From Acidimicrobiia bacterium (GTDB lineage: Bacteria > Actinomycetota > Acidimicrobiia > Spongiisociales > ZC4RG35), in assembly GCA_965203555.1 (NCBI GenBank), contig CBDBCY010000004.1:800001-864000 (forward strand): a DNA stretch of 64,000 bases, read 5' to 3'. The notes beneath the pieces were generated by a model that was not told where the DNA came from, did no database searches, and saw only the letters and a list, made by a program, of their open reading frames with translations. Numbering within the stretch: position 1 is the first letter of the stretch; every line of letters begins with the position of its first letter. Of the stretch, positions 4,029 through 13,727 are shown piece by piece. The position numbers and the translations under genes were made by a program.

Positions 4029-6077
4029 TTGTCACCCGATTCGATTCGCACCATTGCCCTGATCGGCCACGGAGGCAGTGGCAAGACTTCCCTGGCTGAA
4101 GCACTTCTCTACACCGCCGGGGTGACCACCCGACTCGGTTCGGTGGACCAGGGCACCACCATCTTGGACCATGAGCCGGAGGAGGAGGAACGCAGGCAAT
4201 CCTTGAACCTCTCGGTGGCCTCCTTCAAGTGGAACGGATGCAAGATCAACCTGATCGATACTCCCGGATACGCCGACTTCTCAGGCGATGCCCGCTCCGC
4301 CATCCGGGTGGCGGACTTGGCACTCTTCGTGGTTTCGGGGGTCGACGGCGTGGAAGTTCAAACCGAGCTGATGTGGAAGGTGGCCGCCGACGAAGGGACT
4401 CCGCGCGCGGTGTTCGTCACCAAGCTCGACCGGGACCGATCCTCCCTCGACCGCACTCTCGCCGAGTTGCGGGACGCCTTTGGAACCGGAATCGCTCCCC
4501 TGGTGATCAACGTGGGACAAGAAGCGAACCTGAGGGGAGTGGCCCGGGTCAGTTCAGGACAGGCAGCACTCTACGAGGAGGGCAACCCCCGGGGCGTCAT
4601 CGCCGCCGAGGCCCCCGAAGAAGTCGCTTCGGTCCTGGAAGAAGCCCACATGGAACTGGTGGAGTCGGTAGTCGAGACAGACGACGACCTGATGGACGCC
4701 TACTTCGAAGGGGAGGAGCCCAGCCAGGAAGTGATCGTCTCCGTCATCCGGGAAGCCATGTTGACCGGAGAACTCTTCCCGGTGCTGGCCGGTTCGTCCA
4801 GCCGACTGATCGGAATAGATGTCCTGGCCGACTTCCTCAAAGTTTTTGCGCCTACCCCGCTGGAGCGATCCGCCCCGCCGCTCGCGGAGGGCGAAATACA
4901 GATATCGGGAGACGGCGGCGCCACTGCCTACGTATTCAAGACGATCGGCGACCCGTACGTAGGGCGTATCTCCATTCTGAGAGTGTTCAGCGGATCTTTC
5001 AAAGCCGACGACCACCTGGAATTGGCCGGGGGGCCGACGGTCAGAGTGAGCAATCTGTTCTTCCTTCAGGGCCGCAACACCGATCCGGCCGCTGAGGTGT
5101 CCTGTGGAGATGTGGCGGCAGTGGCCAAGGTCGACAGGGCCACTACCGGCGCCACCCTGCGGTCGGTGGGGAAAACCGCGGTGGTGCTCCCCGCGGTCTA
5201 CCCGAAGCCGGTCATGGAATTGGCCATCTTCCCACGGTCCACGCAGGATGAGGAGAAGCTCTCCACCGCCCTGCAGCGGGCTGTCGAGGAAGATCCCACC
5301 CTAGCGGTTGAACGCCGGTCTGAAACCGGTGAAACCATCCTGGCAGGACTGGGCGACGTGCACCTGGACGTCACCTTGGCGCGCATCAAACGCAAGTACG
5401 GCGTGGAAGTGGAAACCGCCCTTCCCAGGATCGCCTATCGGGAAACGGTCAAGGGCCGGGCCGCGGCAGAGGGAAAGCACAAGAAACAGACCGGGGGACG
5501 CGGGCAATTCGGCGTGGCTTTCGTGCGTTTTGCTCCCAAGCCCCAGGGCGAAGGCTACGAGTTCATCGACTCCATCAAGGGAGGCGCCATCCCCCGCCAG
5601 TACATTCCGGCGGTCGACAAGGGGATCAGGGAGGCCTTCGCCCGCGGGATTCTGGCCGGTTTTCCGGTCATCGACGTGTCGGCCGAGGTCTACGACGGCA
5701 AGTATCATTCCGTCGACTCCGATGAGTTGTCTTTCCGCATGGCGGGAATCGCCGCCGTACGTTCTGCCGGGTCGGACCTGCGACCGGTCCTGCTGGAGCC
5801 CATCACCCGTCTATCGGTCAAAGTGCCCGAGGAGTACACCGGAGACGTAATAGGTGACATAAACGCAAAACGGGGCCGGGTGTACGGCATGGAGACGGAT
5901 GGATCGCTTCGGGTTATTTCCGCAGAGGTCCCCATGGCGGAGATCCAACGGTACGCGGTCGACCTTCGCTCGATGACCAGTGGACGCGGTACCTTCGAGG
6001 TGGCCTTCGACCACTATTCGGAGATTCCACATCAGGAAGCCCAGAAAGTGATCAGCGCATCCCGGAAGGAAGACTGA
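4029..6077 (+). CDS. fusA2: Elongation factor G-like protein (EF-G2)
   Basis: GHGGSGKT, DTPGYADF, TKLD, KKQTGGRGQF, YHSVDS; divergent from pgsA as in other actinobacteria. Confidence 0.9.
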   Translation: MSPDSIRTIALIGHGGSGKTSLAEALLYTAGVTTRLGSVDQGTTILDHEPEEEERRQSLNLSVASFKWNGCKINLIDTPGYADFSGDARSAIRVADLALFVVSGVDGVEVQTELMWKVAADEGTPRAVFVTKLDRDRSSLDRTLAELRDAFGTGIAPLVINVGQEANLRGVARVSSGQAALYEEGNPRGVIAAEAPEEVASVLEEAHMELVESVVETDDDLMDAYFEGEEPSQEVIVSVIREAMLTGELFPVLAGSSSRLIGIDVLADFLKVFAPTPLERSAPPLAEGEIQISGDGGATAYVFKTIGDPYVGRISILRVFSGSFKADDHLELAGGPTVRVSNLFFLQGRNTDPAAEVSCGDVAAVAKVDRATTGATLRSVGKTAVVLPAVYPKPVMELAIFPRSTQDEEKLSTALQRAVEEDPTLAVERRSETGETILAGLGDVHLDVTLARIKRKYGVEVETALPRIAYRETVKGRAAAEGKHKKQTGGRGQFGVAFVRFAPKPQGEGYEFIDSIKGGAIPRQYIPAVDKGIREAFARGILAGFPVIDVSAEVYDGKYHSVDSDELSFRMAGIAAVRSAGSDLRPVLLEPITRLSVKVPEEYTGDVIGDINAKRGRVYGMETDGSLRVISAEVPMAEIQRYAVDLRSMTSGRGTFEVAFDHYSEIPHQEAQKVISASRKED

Positions 6078-7408
6078 TGCCTACCGAGGACGGCGCCCGA
6101 CTACATTACCGAGGGCAGGAATTGGGACTACCCCTGGTGGCGCCGACCGTGGGAGACTGGGGCATTGACATCTCCCGGCTGAGGGCCGACTTGGGACTGA
6201 TCACCGTGGACCGGGGATTCGGCAACACCTCGCAGAACCCCAGTTCGGTCAGCTTCGTCAACGGCGAACAGGGAACCTTGAGCTACCGGGGCTACCCGAT
6301 CGAAGAGTTGGCCGGCCGGGTTGGTTTCTTGGAGGTGGCCTGGCTGCTCCTGTACGAGGACCTTCCCTCTCCCTCCCAACTCGACCGTTTCGAGGAGGAA
6401 ATCCGGGACTTCTCCGACGTGGGCGATTACATGCAGAGCTTCCTGGAGGCCTTCCCGGAAGAGAGCACTCCCATGGCTACCCTGGCCGCCGGGGTGCTCA
6501 GCATGGTAGGCCGCCATCCCGAGGCCTCCCAGACCAGCAAGCCCGAAATGTGGGAGAGAGCCACCCGCATTCTCCTCGCCGAAATGCCGGTGCTGGCCGC
6601 CCTGATAAACCGCCGATGCCTGGGACTGGACCCCATCGAGATAAGAACCGATCTGCCCTACACCGCTCGGTTCTATCACACCGCAGTGGCTGAGTCGGAG
6701 TCATCTCCTGCTCCCGATCCGCAACGCCTTGCCGTGCTGGAGATGCTGGAGCTTCTCCATAGCGACCACGGACAGAACTGCTCGTCCTCGGCGGTGCAGT
6801 TGGTCGGATCGGGCCGGGCCAGCATCTTCGCCTCGATAGCAGCGGGGATAAACGCCCTGTCGGGTCCTCTCCACGGCGGCGCCAACCAGAGGGTCCTGGG
6901 AATGCTGCAGGAGATCCAGATGGAAGGAGGAGACGTGAGAAAGGCCCTGGATCGGGCAAAGGACCGTTCCGACCCGTTCCGACTCATGGGCTTTGGTCAC
7001 CGGGTATACCGAAACTACGACCCGAGAGCAAGAATCATCAAAGACGCGGCCGCCGAGGTGCTGGCCGGTCTGGGCACGGACGATCCCCTCCTGCAGTTGG
7101 CCCAGGAACTGGAGAATGCGGCATTGGCGGACGAGTACTTCGTAAAGCGCAAGCTTTATCCCAACGTCGACTTCTACTCCGGTTTTCTGTATCGGGCGCT
7201 GGGCTTTCCCACCCAAATGTTCACCGTGCTTTTTGCAATAGGCCGGTTGCCGGGTTGGCTTTCCCACTGGCGGGAGATGGCTTCCGACCCCAAGAGCCGC
7301 ATTTTCCGCCCCCGCCAGGTCTATGTGGGCCGAACCGAACGGAAACTGGAGGACCGCGGCGCAACGACCCGATCTCAGACGGCGGGCGCCTCCAGTTCCT
7401 CTATGTAA
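6077..7408 (+). CDS. gltA: Citrate synthase
   Basis: LSYRGYPI, DHGQNCS, GPLHGGAN, MGFGHRVY, YPNVDFYSG. Confidence 0.95.
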   Translation: MPTEDGARLHYRGQELGLPLVAPTVGDWGIDISRLRADLGLITVDRGFGNTSQNPSSVSFVNGEQGTLSYRGYPIEELAGRVGFLEVAWLLLYEDLPSPSQLDRFEEEIRDFSDVGDYMQSFLEAFPEESTPMATLAAGVLSMVGRHPEASQTSKPEMWERATRILLAEMPVLAALINRRCLGLDPIEIRTDLPYTARFYHTAVAESESSPAPDPQRLAVLEMLELLHSDHGQNCSSSAVQLVGSGRASIFASIAAGINALSGPLHGGANQRVLGMLQEIQMEGGDVRKALDRAKDRSDPFRLMGFGHRVYRNYDPRARIIKDAAAEVLAGLGTDDPLLQLAQELENAALADEYFVKRKLYPNVDFYSGFLYRALGFPTQMFTVLFAIGRLPGWLSHWREMASDPKSRIFRPRQVYVGRTERKLEDRGATTRSQTAGASSSSM

Positions 7409-7866
7409 ACCTCTGAGCACAGTTCACCGTCAGCCCCGTCAATCTCCACCAGGGCACGGCGCAGGGGCGGGCTTTCCGCAGAGTACAGGATCACCTGCCA
7501 GCGGGGCCGAGATCTGATCCCGGTAAAGCTGACCGCCACGGAGGCGTGCCCCACCGCAAACGGCACCTCGCCCGCCGCCACTCTCAAAGCCCCGGCCTGA
7601 TCGAGGGAGAGGGGCCACGACGCCCACCAGTGGTAGGCGGCCATCCCCGTCAACAGGACGACAGAGATCCACAGGCCCGGGGTGGAAAACGCCAATCCTC
7701 CCAAGACGACGGCCGTTCCCAGGTAAACCCACCCGGCCCAACTACGCCGGCGTGGATCCGGAAAGCGGTACGGCCCCACGGCCGCGGCGTCCAAATCGTC
7801 GGGGACCGCCTCGGCCCGGGCCAGGTCGTCCGGGATCACTATCCCGTCTTGTCCCTTGGCGCTCAT
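7375..7866 (-). CDS. Hypothetical membrane protein
   Basis: 163-aa ORF immediately downstream of thrS with two hydrophobic segments; DLDA..VGPYRFPD motif. Confidence 0.65.
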   Translation of the reverse strand: MSAKGQDGIVIPDDLARAEAVPDDLDAAAVGPYRFPDPRRRSWAGWVYLGTAVVLGGLAFSTPGLWISVVLLTGMAAYHWWASWPLSLDQAGALRVAAGEVPFAVGHASVAVSFTGIRSRPRWQVILYSAESPPLRRALVEIDGADGELCSEVYIEELEAPAV

Positions 7867-7872
7867 CGGAGA

Positions 7873-10764
7873 TCAGTCAAACGATCCGCTGGGAGGAAGA
7901 GCTTCCTCGGCCAGTGTCGCGGCGATCTCGACCAGGGGCACAGCTCTTTTCTCTTGCTTTTCTCCGAAGCGGCGCAGTCCCACGGTGTTGTTACTGACAT
8001 CCTGATCGCCCACCACCATCACAACCGGGTGTTTGGCGGTCATTGCTCTCCGTATCTTCTCCCCCAGACGATCCGACGAAGCATCCACCCTGACCCGCAA
8101 ACCCATTGACTGCAGCTTGTCCGCCACCTGTCGCGCATAGTCGAGGTGACGGTCGGCCACCGGGTTGACCGTGACTTGGATCGGCGCCAGCCACATGGGG
8201 AATGCTCCCGCATAGTGTTCCACCAGCACCCCGAAGAACCTTTCTATCGATCCCGCCTTGGCGCTGTGAATCATCACCGGTCTTCGAAAGACATTGTCGG
8301 CGCCGGCGTATTCGAGACCGAAGTTGTCGGGAAGGGCAAAGTCAACCTGGATGGTGGACATCTGCCAGCGTCTCCCGATGGCGTCCCTGACGTGAACGTC
8401 GATCTTGGGCCCGTAGAACGCTCCCTCGCCCTCTGCCACCCGGTGGGATACTTCTCCCTTCTGCAGAGACTCCAGGAGGGCCTCCTCGGCTACCTCCCAC
8501 AACTGGGGATCTCCCACGAATTTGTCTGGTCGGGTGGAGAGATCCGCCTCGAATTCGGAAAACCCGAAGTCCTGCAACCAGCTGAGAACGAAGAGCAGAT
8601 GCATGTCCAATTCAGCCGGCAACTGTTGACGGGTACAGAAGGTGTGGGAGTCGTCCTGGGTGAAACCTCGGGCACGCAACGCACCGTGAATCACTCCCGA
8701 ACGTTCATAGCGATAAACCCCGCCCAATTCCGACAGACGGATCGGCAGGTCCCGGTAGGAGCGACCCCGGCTGCGGTAGATCAGCACATGAAACGGGCAG
8801 TTCATGGGCTTTACCAGGTATTCATCACCGCCGTCCAGAACCATCGGCGGATACATGTTCTCTGAATAGAAGTCAAGGTGACCTGAGGTTTCCCAAAGTT
8901 GGCTACGAGCCAAGTGGGGAGAGAAAACAAACTCAAACCCGAAGCGTTGATGGAGTTGGCGGCTGTGATCTTCCATCAACTTCCTTACCATCCCCCCCTT
9001 GGAATGCCATACCATTAGTCCCGCCCCCAACTGCGGGGGGAAGGAAAACAAGTCCAATGCGGGTCCCAATCTGCGGTGATCCCGTCGCTCGGCTTCTTCC
9101 AGACGGTGCAGATACTCCTTCAAGGCGCGGGGGGACTCCCAAGCCGTTCCATAGATTCTCTGCAATTGCGGTCTGTTCTCATCGCCCCTCCAATAGGCGC
9201 CGGAAGACCGAAGCAGTTTTACAGCTTTGAGTCTTCCAGTGGAAGGTACATGCGGACCGAGACACAAATCAACGAAACCGTCATTTGAGTAAACAGTTAC
9301 TTCCTCTCCTTCCGCCACTTCAGACGAATCGACCGACTCGATGATCTCCAATTTGAAGGGATGTGACCGGAACACTTCCAACGCCTCGGCCCGGCTCATC
9401 GATCTGCGTATGAAAGGCTGATCAGCAGCAATCAACTGATCCATTCTCTCTTCCAGGCGGGACAGGTCTTCGGGCGAGAAAGGCTGATCGATCCCGAAGT
9501 CGTAATAGAAGCCGTCTTCAATGGGAGGGCCGATCGCAAAGGTGGATCCGGGGAAGAGGTCCAGCACCGCCTGAGCGAGCACATGAGCAGCCGAGTGCCG
9601 CATTACGCGCCGACCTTCTTCGGTCCGGTCAGTGACTATCCGAAGTTTTCCGGACCTTCGAAGAGGTCGACCGAGATCCATCAACTCGCCATCAAGCTCG
9701 ACAGCCACTGCCGCTCTGGCCAGCCCAGGCCCGATCCGGCGGGCCAACTCCTGGCCCGTGATACCAGGTTCGCCCGTCCGGAGACTTCCGTCGGGCAATT
9801 CCCACCGAAGCGTCACGTCTCTTTCCTCAACTCGACGTAAAAGGGTACCCGCTCCCGCCGAACTCGAACGCTCATCCAGAGTCAGCAGATAGGAATGGTC
9901 GCTGTGATGATGCCGAAATCCCATGGACCGATACATATTCAGGGCAGCCACATTCCCAGCGTCCACATAGAGAACGCAAGCTCGGGCGTGATGGTAGGTA
10001 TGCATGTGTCTGATGCCCTCCAACAGCAACGCCTTACCCAGACCCATCCGCTGGTATCCCGGCACCACGCCGATCACATAAATCTCCCCGGCTCGGGGAG
10101 AAGGCACCTTGGTCCAACAGAATCCGGCCAGCACCTCGCCGTCCCAGGCCATTCTCAAACCCTCCGAGGAGAACCAGGGACGCCTCCGGCGGCGGTCCAG
10201 ATCATTCAACCTCCAATTCCCGTTCTCCGGGTGGCCGGAAAAGACCCGGTTGTTCCCCTCCAACCAGGCCTCCTCGTCAATCCCTTCCCGAAAACCCCTC
10301 ACCTCTATACCAGGAGGAAACCGCGGTAATGCGACCAGGGGAAGGGGGGCACGCATGTGATGCAACTCGCGTTCCAGGCCAAAGCCTGCCCGCTCAGCGG
10401 CGTCTGCCACCTGTGGAATATAAGCCCACAGGCGGATCCCCGACCCACCTCGGATCTTCACTTCGCGTCGCACGTTCTCCAAGAGTTCGTTAAGGACCGA
10501 CTCCATCCGGTAGTCGGGATGCACCGCCGCTTCCACAGTCCACAATCCCTGGTCTTCCTCAATGAAAGCCAGATACGACACAATTCCGCCGTCACCCTCC
10601 GCCACCAGCCCTGCAGTCTCGGCGCCCATGTCGACCGGAGGCTCCACCAGATAGAAGTGCTTTCGCTCTCCCAAAGCCGGGTGGAGATCGTGTTCCTCAA
10701 TGTCGGCAATCAACTGGCGCAGAGCATCAAGATCGGTCTGCAGATCTACGCTACGCAGGTTCAA
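7873..10764 (-). CDS. thrS: Single ORF: MshD-like mycothiol synthase (tandem GNAT, about aa 1-297) fused in frame to threonine--tRNA ligase (from about 9816)
   Basis: N-part: F..HPE.G.W, PWF..EG, LAGFCWTK, GEIYVIGV, LYVDAGN; C-part: TGS domain, RHSAAH, DLCLGPH, RDHR, KPMNCPFH, AFYGPKID; no stop between them; AAGGAGG 9 nt before TTG 10764. Confidence 0.92.
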   Translation of the reverse strand: MNLRSVDLQTDLDALRQLIADIEEHDLHPALGERKHFYLVEPPVDMGAETAGLVAEGDGGIVSYLAFIEEDQGLWTVEAAVHPDYRMESVLNELLENVRREVKIRGGSGIRLWAYIPQVADAAERAGFGLERELHHMRAPLPLVALPRFPPGIEVRGFREGIDEEAWLEGNNRVFSGHPENGNWRLNDLDRRRRRPWFSSEGLRMAWDGEVLAGFCWTKVPSPRAGEIYVIGVVPGYQRMGLGKALLLEGIRHMHTYHHARACVLYVDAGNVAALNMYRSMGFRHHHSDHSYLLTLDERSSSAGAGTLLRRVEERDVTLRWELPDGSLRTGEPGITGQELARRIGPGLARAAVAVELDGELMDLGRPLRRSGKLRIVTDRTEEGRRVMRHSAAHVLAQAVLDLFPGSTFAIGPPIEDGFYYDFGIDQPFSPEDLSRLEERMDQLIAADQPFIRRSMSRAEALEVFRSHPFKLEIIESVDSSEVAEGEEVTVYSNDGFVDLCLGPHVPSTGRLKAVKLLRSSGAYWRGDENRPQLQRIYGTAWESPRALKEYLHRLEEAERRDHRRLGPALDLFSFPPQLGAGLMVWHSKGGMVRKLMEDHSRQLHQRFGFEFVFSPHLARSQLWETSGHLDFYSENMYPPMVLDGGDEYLVKPMNCPFHVLIYRSRGRSYRDLPIRLSELGGVYRYERSGVIHGALRARGFTQDDSHTFCTRQQLPAELDMHLLFVLSWLQDFGFSEFEADLSTRPDKFVGDPQLWEVAEEALLESLQKGEVSHRVAEGEGAFYGPKIDVHVRDAIGRRWQMSTIQVDFALPDNFGLEYAGADNVFRRPVMIHSAKAGSIERFFGVLVEHYAGAFPMWLAPIQVTVNPVADRHLDYARQVADKLQSMGLRVRVDASSDRLGEKIRRAMTAKHPVVMVVGDQDVSNNTVGLRRFGEKQEKRAVPLVEIAATLAEEALPPSGSFD

Positions 10765-10866
10765 GAGTCATGACCTCCTTTGAATGGACCAATTGAATGG
10801 ACCGAGCGCGGATTGAGCAGACCCTCCAATGGCAAACCCTGAACCATTCCGATCAGCAGGAAAAAG

Positions 10867-10938
10867 TGGGCGCTACTGGGATCGAACCAGTGACCTCTGC
10901 CGTGTGAAGGCAGCGCTCTCCCGCTGAGCTAAGCGCCC
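10867..10938 (-). tRNA. tRNA-Val(CAC)
   Basis: GGGCGCTTAGCTCAG..CTGCC TT CAC AC GGCAG..GGTTCGATCCC; full cloverleaf. Confidence 0.95.
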
Positions 10939-10973
10939 GCTTAAACAGAGAATGGTACCTTGATTACATTCCC

Positions 10974-11369
10974 TCAGGAACGGGTTCGGGCGATACCACT
11001 CTTGCTGAGCACGGCAGCAGCCACACCCATCTCCCGCCATGCCTTATAGGAAATACCCTTACGAGTGGAGTAAGACTTGGCCGCATTGACAAACTCTGCC
11101 TCCAGCGCATTGATATCACCCGGATCTTCCGCGCGACGTTTCTCAGCGTCGATCCGTTGTTGGATCAAGGCAAGTCTCTGTAACTGATCCGACTCGTTCT
11201 CAAGTTTCTCTTGCACTTCTTCCAGTTCCTTTTGAGGCGACTTCCGACGTCCTCGACGCCCTGCCGAGGAGTGCAGGGCCTCCAAATATGCACGCACAGC
11301 CTTCGTCTGGGCTCGGGCTGCGGCTCTCGCTGCCCGCACCTCTGGAGAAAGATTTCTCCGTTTATCCAT
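10974..11369 (-). CDS. Small basic hypothetical protein (possibly nucleic-acid binding)
   Basis: ATG 11369 after a purine-rich SD; AVRAYLEAL..GRRKSP, coiled coil, GISYKAWREMGV. Confidence 0.7.
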   Translation of the reverse strand: MDKRRNLSPEVRAARAAARAQTKAVRAYLEALHSSAGRRGRRKSPQKELEEVQEKLENESDQLQRLALIQQRIDAEKRRAEDPGDINALEAEFVNAAKSYSTRKGISYKAWREMGVAAAVLSKSGIARTRS

Positions 11370-11722
11370 CCACTCTCCCCTTTCGTTGCGAAATTGAGAA
11401 ACAATAGTAGGTGCCTTGACAATCTGCTGCAAACCGTTGGATATTGTTTTACAAGAGCAAGTAATAACCTGTGATCCACTATCTAGAGAATCTCGGCGGA
11501 GTTCTTCTTCCTTTTATGGATAAGTTTCAGAAACCATCTAAGGTTTCCCAACCCTCGCCTTCGGAAAGCGGCAACCAAGTAACTTAGTGCGACACCAATA
11601 CTCCAGTCGACACAAAGGCTGGTCCCAAGAATGCGGTGGTGCCGAGCGATGCCCGCTAGGACTTGACCTAACGAGGCCGGCGCGTCACCCGGTTCGTGGC
11701 ATTACCGGGCGACAAGAAAGAG

Positions 11723-11794
11723 TGGGCCCTAGTGGAATTGAACCACTGACCTCTTCCGTGTCAAGGAAGCGCTCTTCCTCTGAGCTAAGGGCCC
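11723..11794 (-). tRNA. tRNA-Val(GAC)
   Basis: GGGCCCTTAGCTCAG..CTTCC TT GAC AC GGAAG..GGTTCAATTCC. Confidence 0.95.
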
Positions 11795-11815
11795 CATCGA
11801 AAACACCCTTTGCGG

Positions 11816-11887
11816 AGGCGACGTCCGGAATCGAACCGGAGTAACGGGTTTTGCAGACCCGTGCCTAATCCACTCGGCCACGTCGCC
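11816..11887 (-). tRNA. tRNA-Cys(GCA)
   Basis: GGCGACGTGGCCGAGTGG..CGGGT CT GCA AA ACCCG..GGTTCGATTCC. Confidence 0.95.
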
Positions 11888-11920
11888 GCGCTCTTCCACA
11901 TCAGCGGAAAAACCTGGAAG

Positions 11921-11993
11921 AGCGGAAGACGGGGCTTGAACCCGCGACCTCAACCTTGGCAAGGTTGCGCTCTACCAGCTGAGCTACTTCCGC
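11921..11993 (-). tRNA. tRNA-Gly(GCC)
   Basis: GCGGAAGTAGCTCAG..CAACC TT GCC AA GGTTG..GGTTCAAGCCC; Gly-Cys-Val cluster typical of actinobacteria. Confidence 0.95.
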
Positions 11994-12018
11994 GGCTTGC
12001 GACCATTATAACTCGCTT

Positions 12019-12456
12019 TTACCATCCGGTGGACCCGAATCCAGCTTCGCCGCGTTCGGATTCGCTCAAGCGGTCGACAGCAACCAGGCGGATCGCCGGC
12101 ACAGCCACCACCATTAACTGGGCGATACGGTCGCCTCGGGCAAACCTCACGGTCTCCTGCGACAGATTGACCAGAATCACGGACACTTCCCCCCGGTATC
12201 CAGAATCTATCAATCCCGGACTGTTCACAACCCCGATACCAAGCCGGTCAGCCAAACCGCTGCGAGGCAGCACCAATCCCGCATATCCGTCGGGAATGGC
12301 CAGGGCCAAACCAGTCGGCAGCTTTTTGCGTTGCCCGGGCGCCAATTCCACGTCAACAGCGGTGGGAAGATCAAAAGCTGCATCACCCTTATAGGCAATG
12401 GTGGGCAAAAAGGCTTCACCTTCTATTTTTAGGACGCTAATATTGAGGTTCTGCAT
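12019..12456 (-). CDS. dut: dUTP diphosphatase
   Basis: AAFDL, PRSGLA, GLIDSGYRGE, RIAQL, RGEAGFGSTG. Confidence 0.95.
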   Translation of the reverse strand: MQNLNISVLKIEGEAFLPTIAYKGDAAFDLPTAVDVELAPGQRKKLPTGLALAIPDGYAGLVLPRSGLADRLGIGVVNSPGLIDSGYRGEVSVILVNLSQETVRFARGDRIAQLMVVAVPAIRLVAVDRLSESERGEAGFGSTGW

Positions 12457-12548
12457 AGTGGATGTCGGGCGGACACCACCCAAAGTAGGTGCTGTTGCCC
12501 AACCTTGATTTTAGAGTCCAGCGGAGCAAGCCGCGGGGCAAGCATCTC

Positions 12549-13727
12549 ATGCCCAGCAAGCAGCGACGGCCCCTCCCCCGCGTTCGGGAGCACAGCCGCA
12601 AGGCGAGTCACGGCCGTCACGCCACCCTTCTGAGTCCCGACCGCTCAGGACACACCGACCGTCAATCCGTCGATGACACACCCGACCCTAACCGTCTCAC
12701 CGTCAATGACGTCACCACCCCCGTGGGTCCCAAGGCGCCTCGTTCCTCCGGAGTAAACGGGAATGACACCTCCGCCAACGGAACGGCCGGCCATCCTCTC
12801 ACTGCCGCCCCTGACGTGGTTGTTCCCACCGCCAACGGCAGATACAAGGCAACCGAAGAAACCATCCATCACATGTGGCAGATATCGGAGTCCGCCTCCC
12901 CTCACCCCCGTCTACAGCCAAGCCCATTTCATTCGCTACGGCAGATAACCGCCCACCGGACACGTTCCGGCTTGTGGGCCACCCTGGGGTTGGTGGCTCT
13001 GGCGGCGGCAATCACCGTCGCTCTTGTGATGTCTGTAGGAGGTCCGGGACAGGACAACCCCGACGTACGCGCTGCGGTTGGGGACGCCGCCGCCGTAGCC
13101 GCCGGATCCGTGGAAGATAGCCTTGCAACTCTCGAATCCCTTCGAGCCGGAGATTCATTCACGCCAGATCTGGTTTCCTCCATCTCCGCCCTGGGAGATG
13201 CTTCCCGCAATCTGGTGGAGTCGGCTGCGGCCCTCCCCACCGATGATTCCTCTTTGGCCGAGACTCGCATGTTGGCCACCGCCCTTGCCGGTCGCGCCTC
13301 ACGTCTGGGTGAAACCTTTGGAGCGGCTTTCTCGTATCGAGGGCAATTGGGACCGAATCTGACTTTCCCCGATTTGAACGCTCCACTGGAGATCTCCAAC
13401 CTCTCCGAGAACACCACGCTCTTGACAGACTGGCAATTCCGCCTTGAACAGGCGGCCTCCTCTCAGCCCGGCCAACCGCGGCTCTTACAAAACCAGCAGG
13501 CCCTCGAAGCAACATTGCCATACATAGCGGTGCATCGCCAGGCCTACTCCGACGCGGTGGGCAACGGTCAGTTGGAACAGGCCCAAGCAGCCCTGTTACA
13601 AATAGCCTCCCTGGTGTCGGCCATCGAACAGGACTTCGACCGGGCTTACCTTGAGATCGCCGAGATCGCCGAAGCAGAAATAGCCTCCTTGACCGCCGAC
13701 CTTCAGAATCTGATGACAGGGATGTGA
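12549..13727 (+). CDS. Hypothetical single-pass membrane protein with a helical C-terminal domain
   Basis: Long ORF with a disordered N-terminus and TM segment LWATLGLVALAAAITVALV; start uncertain (12489 or 12549). Confidence 0.65.
   Translation: MPSKQRRPLPRVREHSRKASHGRHATLLSPDRSGHTDRQSVDDTPDPNRLTVNDVTTPVGPKAPRSSGVNGNDTSANGTAGHPLTAAPDVVVPTANGRYKATEETIHHMWQISESASPHPRLQPSPFHSLRQITAHRTRSGLWATLGLVALAAAITVALVMSVGGPGQDNPDVRAAVGDAAAVAAGSVEDSLATLESLRAGDSFTPDLVSSISALGDASRNLVESAAALPTDDSSLAETRMLATALAGRASRLGETFGAAFSYRGQLGPNLTFPDLNAPLEISNLSENTTLLTDWQFRLEQAASSQPGQPRLLQNQQALEATLPYIAVHRQAYSDAVGNGQLEQAQAALLQIASLVSAIEQDFDRAYLEIAEIAEAEIASLTADLQNLMTGM

Follow-up and report, generated by a model that had tools for sequence, protein, structure and literature searches.

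We identified a single uninterrupted open reading frame (ORF) of 963 aa (7873..10764, minus strand; TTG start, TGA stop) in which a mycothiol synthase (MshD)-like tandem GNAT enzyme is joined, through a 19-aa linker, to a complete threonyl-tRNA synthetase (ThrRS). The ORF lies in a 64,000-nucleotide stretch of an Acidimicrobiia genome (contig CBDBCY010000004.1 of assembly GCA_965203555.1, positions 800,001 to 864,000 of the forward strand; hereafter the window, meaning the whole stretch that was analysed). Database names, sample types, and the relative Candidatus Spongiisociaceae show that the species belongs to the Acidimicrobiia, is uncultured, and lives in association with sponges or corals. 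The explanation that we consider probable is that a recent stop loss created a 963-aa fusion that now serves as the only MshD, that a 647-aa ThrRS is probably still produced from retained internal signals, and that the arrangement is an accident of gene evolution rather than a designed bifunctional enzyme.

The fused reading frame and its two halves

Both halves of the fused ORF, which is supported by ORF listing, Pfam, and NCBIfam, were recognised by curated models. The MshD-like tandem GNAT (residues 1-297; 9874..10764, minus strand) matched the mycothiol_MshD model TIGR03448 over residues 11-292 with 198.4 bits in the protein scan (cut-off 163.1) and with 202.1 bits in the genome scan, where the match covered profile positions 10-294 of 294, i.e., the whole length of the model. 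The ThrRS (residues 317-963), which corresponds to a stand-alone thrS frame of 647 aa plus stop at 7873..9816 on the minus strand (NCBIfam and genome scan), matched the thrS model TIGR00418 over residues 389-953 with 647.4 bits (cut-off 383.65). As two hidden Markov model (HMM) matches above curated cut-offs fall in one frame, the combination is not due to chance. Pfam domains were assigned to GNAT (189-283), TGS (323-378), tRNA_SAD (489-538), the class II core (645-851), and the anticodon-binding domain (863-953); the ThrRS architecture is thus complete by Pfam, with its TGS, SAD, class II core, and anticodon-binding domains arranged as expected. The thrS within the fused ORF is the sole over-cut-off ThrRS match in the 3.4-Mb, 95%-complete genome, and the sole MshD-type gene found by the genome profile scan likewise lies within this ORF.

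Sequence motifs and structural comparisons agree with these assignments. The ThrRS editing site carries HxxxH and CxxxH motifs, which appear in the translation as HSAAH and CLGPH (the latter in the stretch DLCLGPH), and the editing Cys column is kept in the alignment consensus FVDLCxGPH. The best sequence match of the GNAT half in the PDB was Mycobacterium tuberculosis mycothiol synthase (2c27/1ozp, E 2.3e-28); QRMGLGKA in the C-terminal GNAT domain aligns with QRRGLGQM of 2c27, the acetyl-CoA binding motif being Q/R-x-x-G-x-G/A. The 2c27 alignment stops 4 residues short of the C-terminus of that chain, which places the natural MshD end near residues 297-300 of the fusion. Residues 1-400 were modelled with AlphaFold2 (AF2); the model had a mean predicted local distance difference test (pLDDT) score of 86.8, with values of about 90 in the GNAT domains and 85-91 in TGS, and fell below 50 at residues 301-314. 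A Foldseek search with this model ranked 1ozp first (E 2.9e-26, TMt 0.84, 30% identity) and 2c27 second. The model points to two domains on a flexible tether, and with a linker predicted to be flexible the two enzymes probably work independently. From the junction alignment of 16 genus loci and the pLDDT values, we delimited the linker as residues 298-316 (19 aa; 9817..9873, minus strand), with the peptide LDERSSSAGAGTLLRRVEERD within the 963-aa translation.

The TTG that starts the fused ORF is preceded, at a distance of 9 nt, by a Shine-Dalgarno site read from the sequence, AAGGAGG (10774..10780, minus strand). An out-of-frame ATG (10769-10771, minus strand), 2 nt past AAGGAGG, opens a 6-codon mini-ORF (MTLEPA-stop) that overlaps this TTG; the spacing from AAGGAGG favours the TTG over the ATG.

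The mshD-thrS junction in related genomes

The origin of the linker was traced in a search of 40 related genomes, including 16 other species genomes of the same genus, of which 15 cover the junction (the remaining one, G011, contributes a C-terminal thrS fragment only). In all 15 assessable congeners, the gene that immediately precedes thrS on its strand is MshD-like, and in every one of them the two genes are separate. Among these congeners the position of the mshD stop varies: it lies ahead of the hexamer TACCCT in the thrS upstream region in seven (G008, G001, G014, G003, G010, G013, and G015), inside the thrS ribosome-binding site in G016, and overlaps or abuts the thrS start codon in six (G004, G012, G002, G005, G009, and G006). 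In two congeners mshD is already in the thrS frame, namely G007, with a single TGA between TACCCT and the ribosome-binding site, and G006, with a TAG directly before the ATG. In the nearest relative, G008, whose ThrRS is 92% identical, MshD ends in ...LTLDAS-stop; at the position of this stop the genome of the window (G000) has a sense codon, and the net length difference is 1 base. More generally, the ThrRS of the window is 82-91% identical to the stand-alone ThrRS of relatives. G000 is thus the endpoint of a graded series of genomes, along which the mshD 3' tail shifts its position over the sequence ahead of thrS.

The other families of the order always have mshD and thrS as separate genes, either adjoining or with 1-3 kb between them; these counts take in the unpublished genomes G027 and G038, on which alone no conclusion depends. 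In G030 and G401 the two genes share a frame, with stops between them. The preliminary description of this DNA had suggested that the linker might be an old intergenic region with a lost stop, and this suggestion is supported by the 15 congeners with separate mshD and thrS genes and by the alignment of the linker signals with those of relatives. The linker is most simply read from the alignment as the former mshD 3' tail plus the thrS upstream region, now translated in the thrS frame.

The join in contigs from several studies

Contigs from four runs belonging to four studies were aligned to positions 9300-10400: X1 (which may be the source of the window itself), X3 (coral metagenome), X4 (sponge metagenome), and X6 (marine metagenome, covering 9304-10133). 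One contig per run crossed the junction, with 0 gaps in each, and with 0 (X1), 6 (X3), 8 (X4), and 7 (X6) substitutions relative to the window. The 12 variant sites comprised 9 synonymous and 3 non-synonymous changes and 0 stops, with 5 synonymous and 2 non-synonymous within-species variants in the mshD part. The fused frame is thus kept at 99.3-99.5% identity in the contigs of the three other studies; gap-free and stop-free contigs from four studies indicate that the uninterrupted frame is a property of the species and not an assembly slip. An indel or stop near the junction, a concern raised in the preliminary description, was absent from the contigs of all four studies. In a metatranscriptome run (X8), which derives from the same sample as X3, the share of sampled words was 0.05.

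These contigs also bear on the explanation that the join is spurious and stems from an assembly or sequencing error of 1 base where the linker is rich in G. Such an error is conceivable in that the 4-contig genome would suggest long reads, G runs occur in the linker, and mshD would terminate at a TGA overlapping GTG 9816 if the frame were shifted by one base; with contigs of three further studies (coral, sponge, and marine) that differ by 6-8 substitutions and 0 gaps, we regard an artefact as extremely unlikely.

Search for other fused forms

Searches beyond the genus did not recover a second fusion. In a class sample of 401 genomes queried with residues 201-420, a search in which junction-spanning matches score highest, no other uninterrupted junction-spanning match occurred among the best 150 of 653; the junction-spanning matches among these came from G000 (no stop), G007 (one TGA), and G401 (two TGA). 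With the whole protein as query against a set of 5.8 billion proteins, there was no fused form among the best 120 of 3760 matches, each of which was a stand-alone ThrRS (617-685 aa) that aligned with 63-69% of the query; most database ThrRS relatives have 643-667 aa. Among proteins of 529-1686 aa with an MshD-like N-terminal region there were four, none of which had aminoacyl-tRNA synthetase (aaRS) domains. A HMMER search of 1.84 billion representatives with residues 251-400 yielded no match to both sides of the junction among the best 150 of 2797, and a pattern scan of GTDB species genomes matched both halves at five loci, where they are in each case separate ORFs. No paper in the library searched contains both "mycothiol synthase" and "threonyl-tRNA synthetase". 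The fused MshD-ThrRS architecture is not an established one and, among the matches listed, is limited to one species.

Several long open frames upstream of thrS were considered and rejected as further fusions. Those in G271 (960 aa), G109 (1022 aa), and G185 (960 aa) looked like a non-coding high-GC frame, as did those in G341 (945 aa), G082 (899 aa), and G276 (1418 aa). This verdict was reached by eye from the translations; tblastn found only a thrS match inside the frames and, at three loci, MshD-like matches in another frame.

Candidate expression signals retained in the linker

The linker contains a set of candidate thrS expression signals. The hexamer TACCCT (9842..9847, minus strand), a -10-like sequence of the TANNNT type and a putative thrS promoter element, is identical in 16 of 16 genus loci. 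It is followed by the Shine-Dalgarno-like site GAGGAAAG (9821..9828, minus strand), a candidate ribosome-binding site for an internal thrS start that aligns with GAGGAG in nearly all relatives, and by an in-frame GTG (9814..9816, minus strand), which aligns with the thrS start (ATG, GTG, or TTG) of the 15 congeners and would represent the ancestral thrS start codon; the longer motif GAGGAAAGAG (9828-9819, minus strand) stands ahead of this GTG (9816-9814). The GTACCCT...GAGGAG...start block is kept at the nucleotide level in the 16 genus loci, whatever the frame in which mshD reads it and also where mshD does not extend into it. Initiation at GTG 9816 gives a protein of 647 aa, in line with the 643-667 aa of most relatives. 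All the features quoted in the preliminary description, i.e., the single 963-aa GNAT-linker-ThrRS ORF, TACCCT, the upstream motif, GTG 9816, and DLCLGPH, are present in the sequence as quoted.

Conservation of the hexamer extends beyond the genus. TANNNT is the -10 consensus of actinobacterial promoters, and a TANNNT hexamer (TACCCT, TACGCT, TAGCCT, or TACGAT) was found 25-40 nt before the thrS start at 30 of 34 loci in 29 of 33 genomes, which are related and hence not independent and which include genera with mshD not adjacent to thrS; the chance expectation for TANNNT at that distance is 0.00-0.09 per locus. On this conservation we read TACCCT as a putative thrS promoter. No terminator was found at the junction by a pattern scan (hits numbered 3, against 4.0 expected in shuffles, including a terminator-like hairpin at 10101-10083 inside the coding sequence). 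An Rfam scan of 7000-12600 with E up to 1 returned no known leader or riboswitch at the junction; it returned only four tRNAs and one sub-threshold chance match.

Several other genera of the family and order have a second conserved element between the -10-like hexamer and thrS, (C)AGGCTAGC/T, seen at eight loci (L023, L026, L028, L032, L034, L035, L039, and L040) some 15-35 nt ahead of the thrS start. The genus of the window lacks this element and has TGTCGAGTGAGGAG at that place. The (C)AGGCTAGC/T element may be a thrS leader or operator.

Proposed origin and expression of the fusion

In the scenario that we favour, the starting point is the arrangement seen in this lineage of Acidimicrobiia, where thrS immediately follows, on one strand, an MshD-like tandem-GNAT gene with an evolutionarily loose 3' end. 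Small indels and a stop loss would then have put mshD in the thrS frame in this species alone, such that ribosomes starting at TTG 10764, behind the strong AAGGAGG, would run on into thrS and produce the 963-aa MshD-linker-ThrRS protein, presumably now the sole source of the GNAT enzyme. With TACCCT, GAGGAAAG, and GTG 9816 surviving in the linker, the 647-aa ThrRS would most likely come from a shorter transcript or from internal initiation. ThrRS is a dimer, so mixed dimers are possible, and the 647-aa ThrRS could dimerise with the fusion. The preliminary description had anticipated that both a fusion and a stand-alone ThrRS might be made; the aligned TACCCT, Shine-Dalgarno site, and start codon lend this proposal support and suggest that both are likely.

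A number of points weigh against this reading. A simple sigma-70 scan detected no promoter at the junction, in a search for TTGACA/TATAAT that TACCCT does not fit, and the Shine-Dalgarno core is GAGGAA here, one base weaker than the GAGGAG of relatives. The contigs that support the join are consensus sequences with a depth of about 6-12, in which minority alleles can be hidden, and one of them (X1) is possibly the source of the window. A distant fused form may have been missed, as the searches above were read among the best 120 of 3760, 150 of 653, and 150 of 2797 matches. Persistence of the fused frame at 99.3-99.5% in three other studies indicates that it is at least tolerated, and a benefit is possible. 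Finally, promoter activity, internal initiation, the two protein products, and the absence of functional coupling are all putative. We infer that the fusion is tolerated rather than selected for.

The weakened Shine-Dalgarno core is also what could favour expression as the fusion only, with the internal promoter and initiation site dead and all ThrRS carrying a 316-residue N-terminal extension. Elongating ribosomes that loaded at the strong upstream site could block access to the internal start, and eukaryotes tolerate N-terminal extensions on ThrRS-type enzymes, according to PMC6794377. We nevertheless consider this outcome unlikely, since the -10-like hexamer, the Shine-Dalgarno site, their spacing, and the GTG are all preserved and line up with the corresponding signals in relatives, and since a strain variant in X4 (9823 T>C), which is synonymous in the fused frame, restores GAGGAG.

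Mycothiol pathway context and selection on the two halves

The genomic context of a canonical MshD, in which MshA, MshB, and MshC supply Cys-GlcN-Ins, was not found complete in this genome. The MshA-like gene scored 423 bits (cut-off 462.5) and the MshB-like gene 207 bits (cut-off 224). The only CysRS/MshC-type gene in G000 is cysS (C4:372957-374375), with 468 bits to the cysS model and 289 to MshC (cut-off 485). A profile scan of 41 family genomes, a count that includes the unpublished genome G437, found MshC over the cut-off in 0; CysRS-type matches were single in 39 of these genomes, in two fragments in one, and absent from one. In the class sample, MshC-like genes (400-446 bits) were present in 51 of 121 genomes, all of other orders, and none was found in the sampled families of the order of the window (f1 0/13, f9 0/5, f2 0/3, f12 0/5, f5 0/1, and f6 0/1). 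An MshD-like gene is kept throughout this order without MshC. As no MshC-like gene was found, canonical mycothiol synthesis is doubtful; the GNAT half may not make canonical mycothiol, and, judging from gene content, its substrate may differ. In both sequence and fold, the two halves are ordinary members of their families, with the one exception that the pathway context of the MshD half fails on MshC.

Both halves are under purifying selection. In the comparison with G008 (Nei-Gojobori, dS about 0.78), the ratio of non-synonymous to synonymous substitution rates (dN/dS) was 0.17 for mshD and 0.054 for thrS, and the other three pairs giving a value for mshD ranged from 0.10 to 0.14; more distant pairs gave similar dN/dS values, with dS near saturation. 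These ratios bear on the idea that the GNAT half is decaying, with mshD dispensable after the order lost MshC, the stop loss an early step of decay, and the N-terminal extension mere ballast. Such a decay would fit the unstable 3' end of mshD in the genus and the MshC searches, which found no MshC-like gene in G000 or in any family sampled from the order and no match over the cut-off in the 41 family genomes. The full-length over-cut-off HMM match, the confident predicted fold, the low mshD dN/dS (0.17 against G008 and 0.10-0.14 in three other pairs), the 5 synonymous against 2 non-synonymous variants, and the retention of mshD throughout an order without MshC all argue against it, and we consider decay highly improbable.

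The position upstream of thrS is occupied by mycothiol-pathway genes in other orders of the class as well. At least eight genomes have an MshC-like gene about 600 nt or less upstream of thrS, namely G092 (C4:2091140-2092719), G111 (C205:5787-7374), G126 (C7:9228-10776), G063 (C1:1726033-1727700), G121 (C7:31394-33020), G058 (C30:772-2322), G100, and G122; in the five such genomes examined for it (G092, G111, G126, G063, and G121), MshD is located elsewhere. This position thus holds an MshC-like gene in other orders and an MshD-like gene in the order of the window, and a mycothiol-pathway gene adjoining thrS appears, from gene order, to be a class-wide habit. A literature search on mycothiol, Acidimicrobiia, and mshC returned no title or abstract on mycothiol genes in the class.

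This habit is among the observations that could speak for an adaptive bifunctional enzyme, with the GNAT domain tethered to ThrRS, e.g., to protect or modify the editing Cys or to acetylate the threonyl or aminoacyl product. Others are that the mshD stop overlaps the thrS start in several congeners, that contigs of four studies all retain the fused frame, and that the editing Cys of Escherichia coli ThrRS (C182) is oxidised by H2O2, as reported in PMC4041444, DLCLGPH being present here. An adaptive origin is nonetheless very unlikely in our view: the fusion is present in one of 16 genus genomes and was not found elsewhere among the matches listed; the linker is recycled upstream DNA, conserved as nucleotides and not as peptide, and is predicted to be disordered; and no MshC-like gene was found, so mycothiol may be absent. 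The preliminary description had correctly stated that the editing Cys of E. coli ThrRS is oxidation-sensitive (PMC4041444); the redox link that it drew between mycothiol/acetyl-CoA metabolism and this Cys gained no support, given a fusion in one species only and no MshC-like gene found.

A related proposal is that the GNAT enzyme is no longer a mycothiol synthase and acts with ThrRS, either on the threonyl or aminoacyl product or on ThrRS itself, the fusion being an extreme form of this partnership. Its probability is small but real, because a mycothiol-pathway gene adjoins thrS class-wide and because the order keeps MshD without MshC.

Gene neighbourhood

The gene for tRNA-Val(cac) (10866..10938, minus strand; identified by Rfam and by neighbourhood) lies 102 nt upstream of the fused ORF. 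It is the first of a same-strand tRNA cluster that continues with Val(gac), Cys(gca), and Gly(gcc) (10866-10938 and 11722-11993, minus strand); a 152-aa ORF without a Pfam match (10974-11432) lies between the tRNAs, and a dUTPase gene (12019-12483, minus strand; Pfam, 110 bits) is located beyond them. On the other side, a 163-aa ORF (7375-7866, minus strand), whose only Pfam match is a weak MauE-like one (21 bits, cut-off 27), starts 6 nt past the thrS stop and may be co-transcribed with thrS. A citrate synthase gene (6077-7408, plus strand; Pfam, 392 bits) follows; like the dUTPase gene, it is an ordinary neighbour.

Significance and comparison with known systems

Nascent fusion of adjacent genes by stop loss is a known phenomenon, and the case described here adds a documented evolutionary intermediate. 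It offers a natural snapshot of how a bifunctional gene may originate: a stop drifts over the promoter and ribosome-binding site of the next gene and is then lost, the downstream gene would keep its own expression signals, and the congeners preserve intermediates, two of them in frame with a single stop. For annotators, it is a caution that this "bifunctional GNAT/ThrRS" is a feature of one species. The biological importance is modest unless the GNAT enzyme cooperates with ThrRS; a more promising lead may be the wider pattern, in which a mycothiol-pathway gene stands beside thrS across the class and this order has MshD without MshC.

Among joined enzymes that include an aaRS, the fungal ErdS (AspRS plus a DUF2156 aminoacyl-tRNA transferase) is similar in that an aaRS is joined to a domain of the GNAT superfamily; as described in PMC8913301, the GNAT-fold domain of ErdS-type fusions uses the aminoacyl-tRNA of its partner, and the fusion has been conserved throughout a clade. 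In the present case, by contrast, the domain is of the acetyl-CoA-type MshD kind and the fusion occurs in one species only; Pfam assigned no DUF2156 to the fused protein (Acetyltransf_1/7/10/9 and FR47 only). Eukaryotic ThrRS-like enzymes with N-terminal extensions resemble the fusion in having added sequence ahead of a ThrRS that keeps its canonical function, but their extensions are interaction modules and not a second enzyme, as described in PMC6794377.

The two halves resemble ordinary enzymes more closely. M. tuberculosis MshD (Rv0819; 1ozp, 2c27) is likewise a tandem GNAT of about 300 residues and is the best sequence and structural match, whereas the gene described here has no stop codon at the corresponding place, runs into ThrRS, and is in a genome in which no MshC-like partner gene was found. 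Like an ordinary bacterial ThrRS, the C-terminal half has all four domains and is the sole copy in its genome, but its frame remains open for another 316 codons in the upstream direction, and a second enzyme is attached to it. The mshD-thrS pairs of the congeners, which are separate and partly overlapping, share gene order, strand, TACCCT, the Shine-Dalgarno site, and the start codon with the window; unlike the window, all 15 congeners keep a stop, and G007 and G006 hold the two genes in frame with a single TGA or TAG between them.

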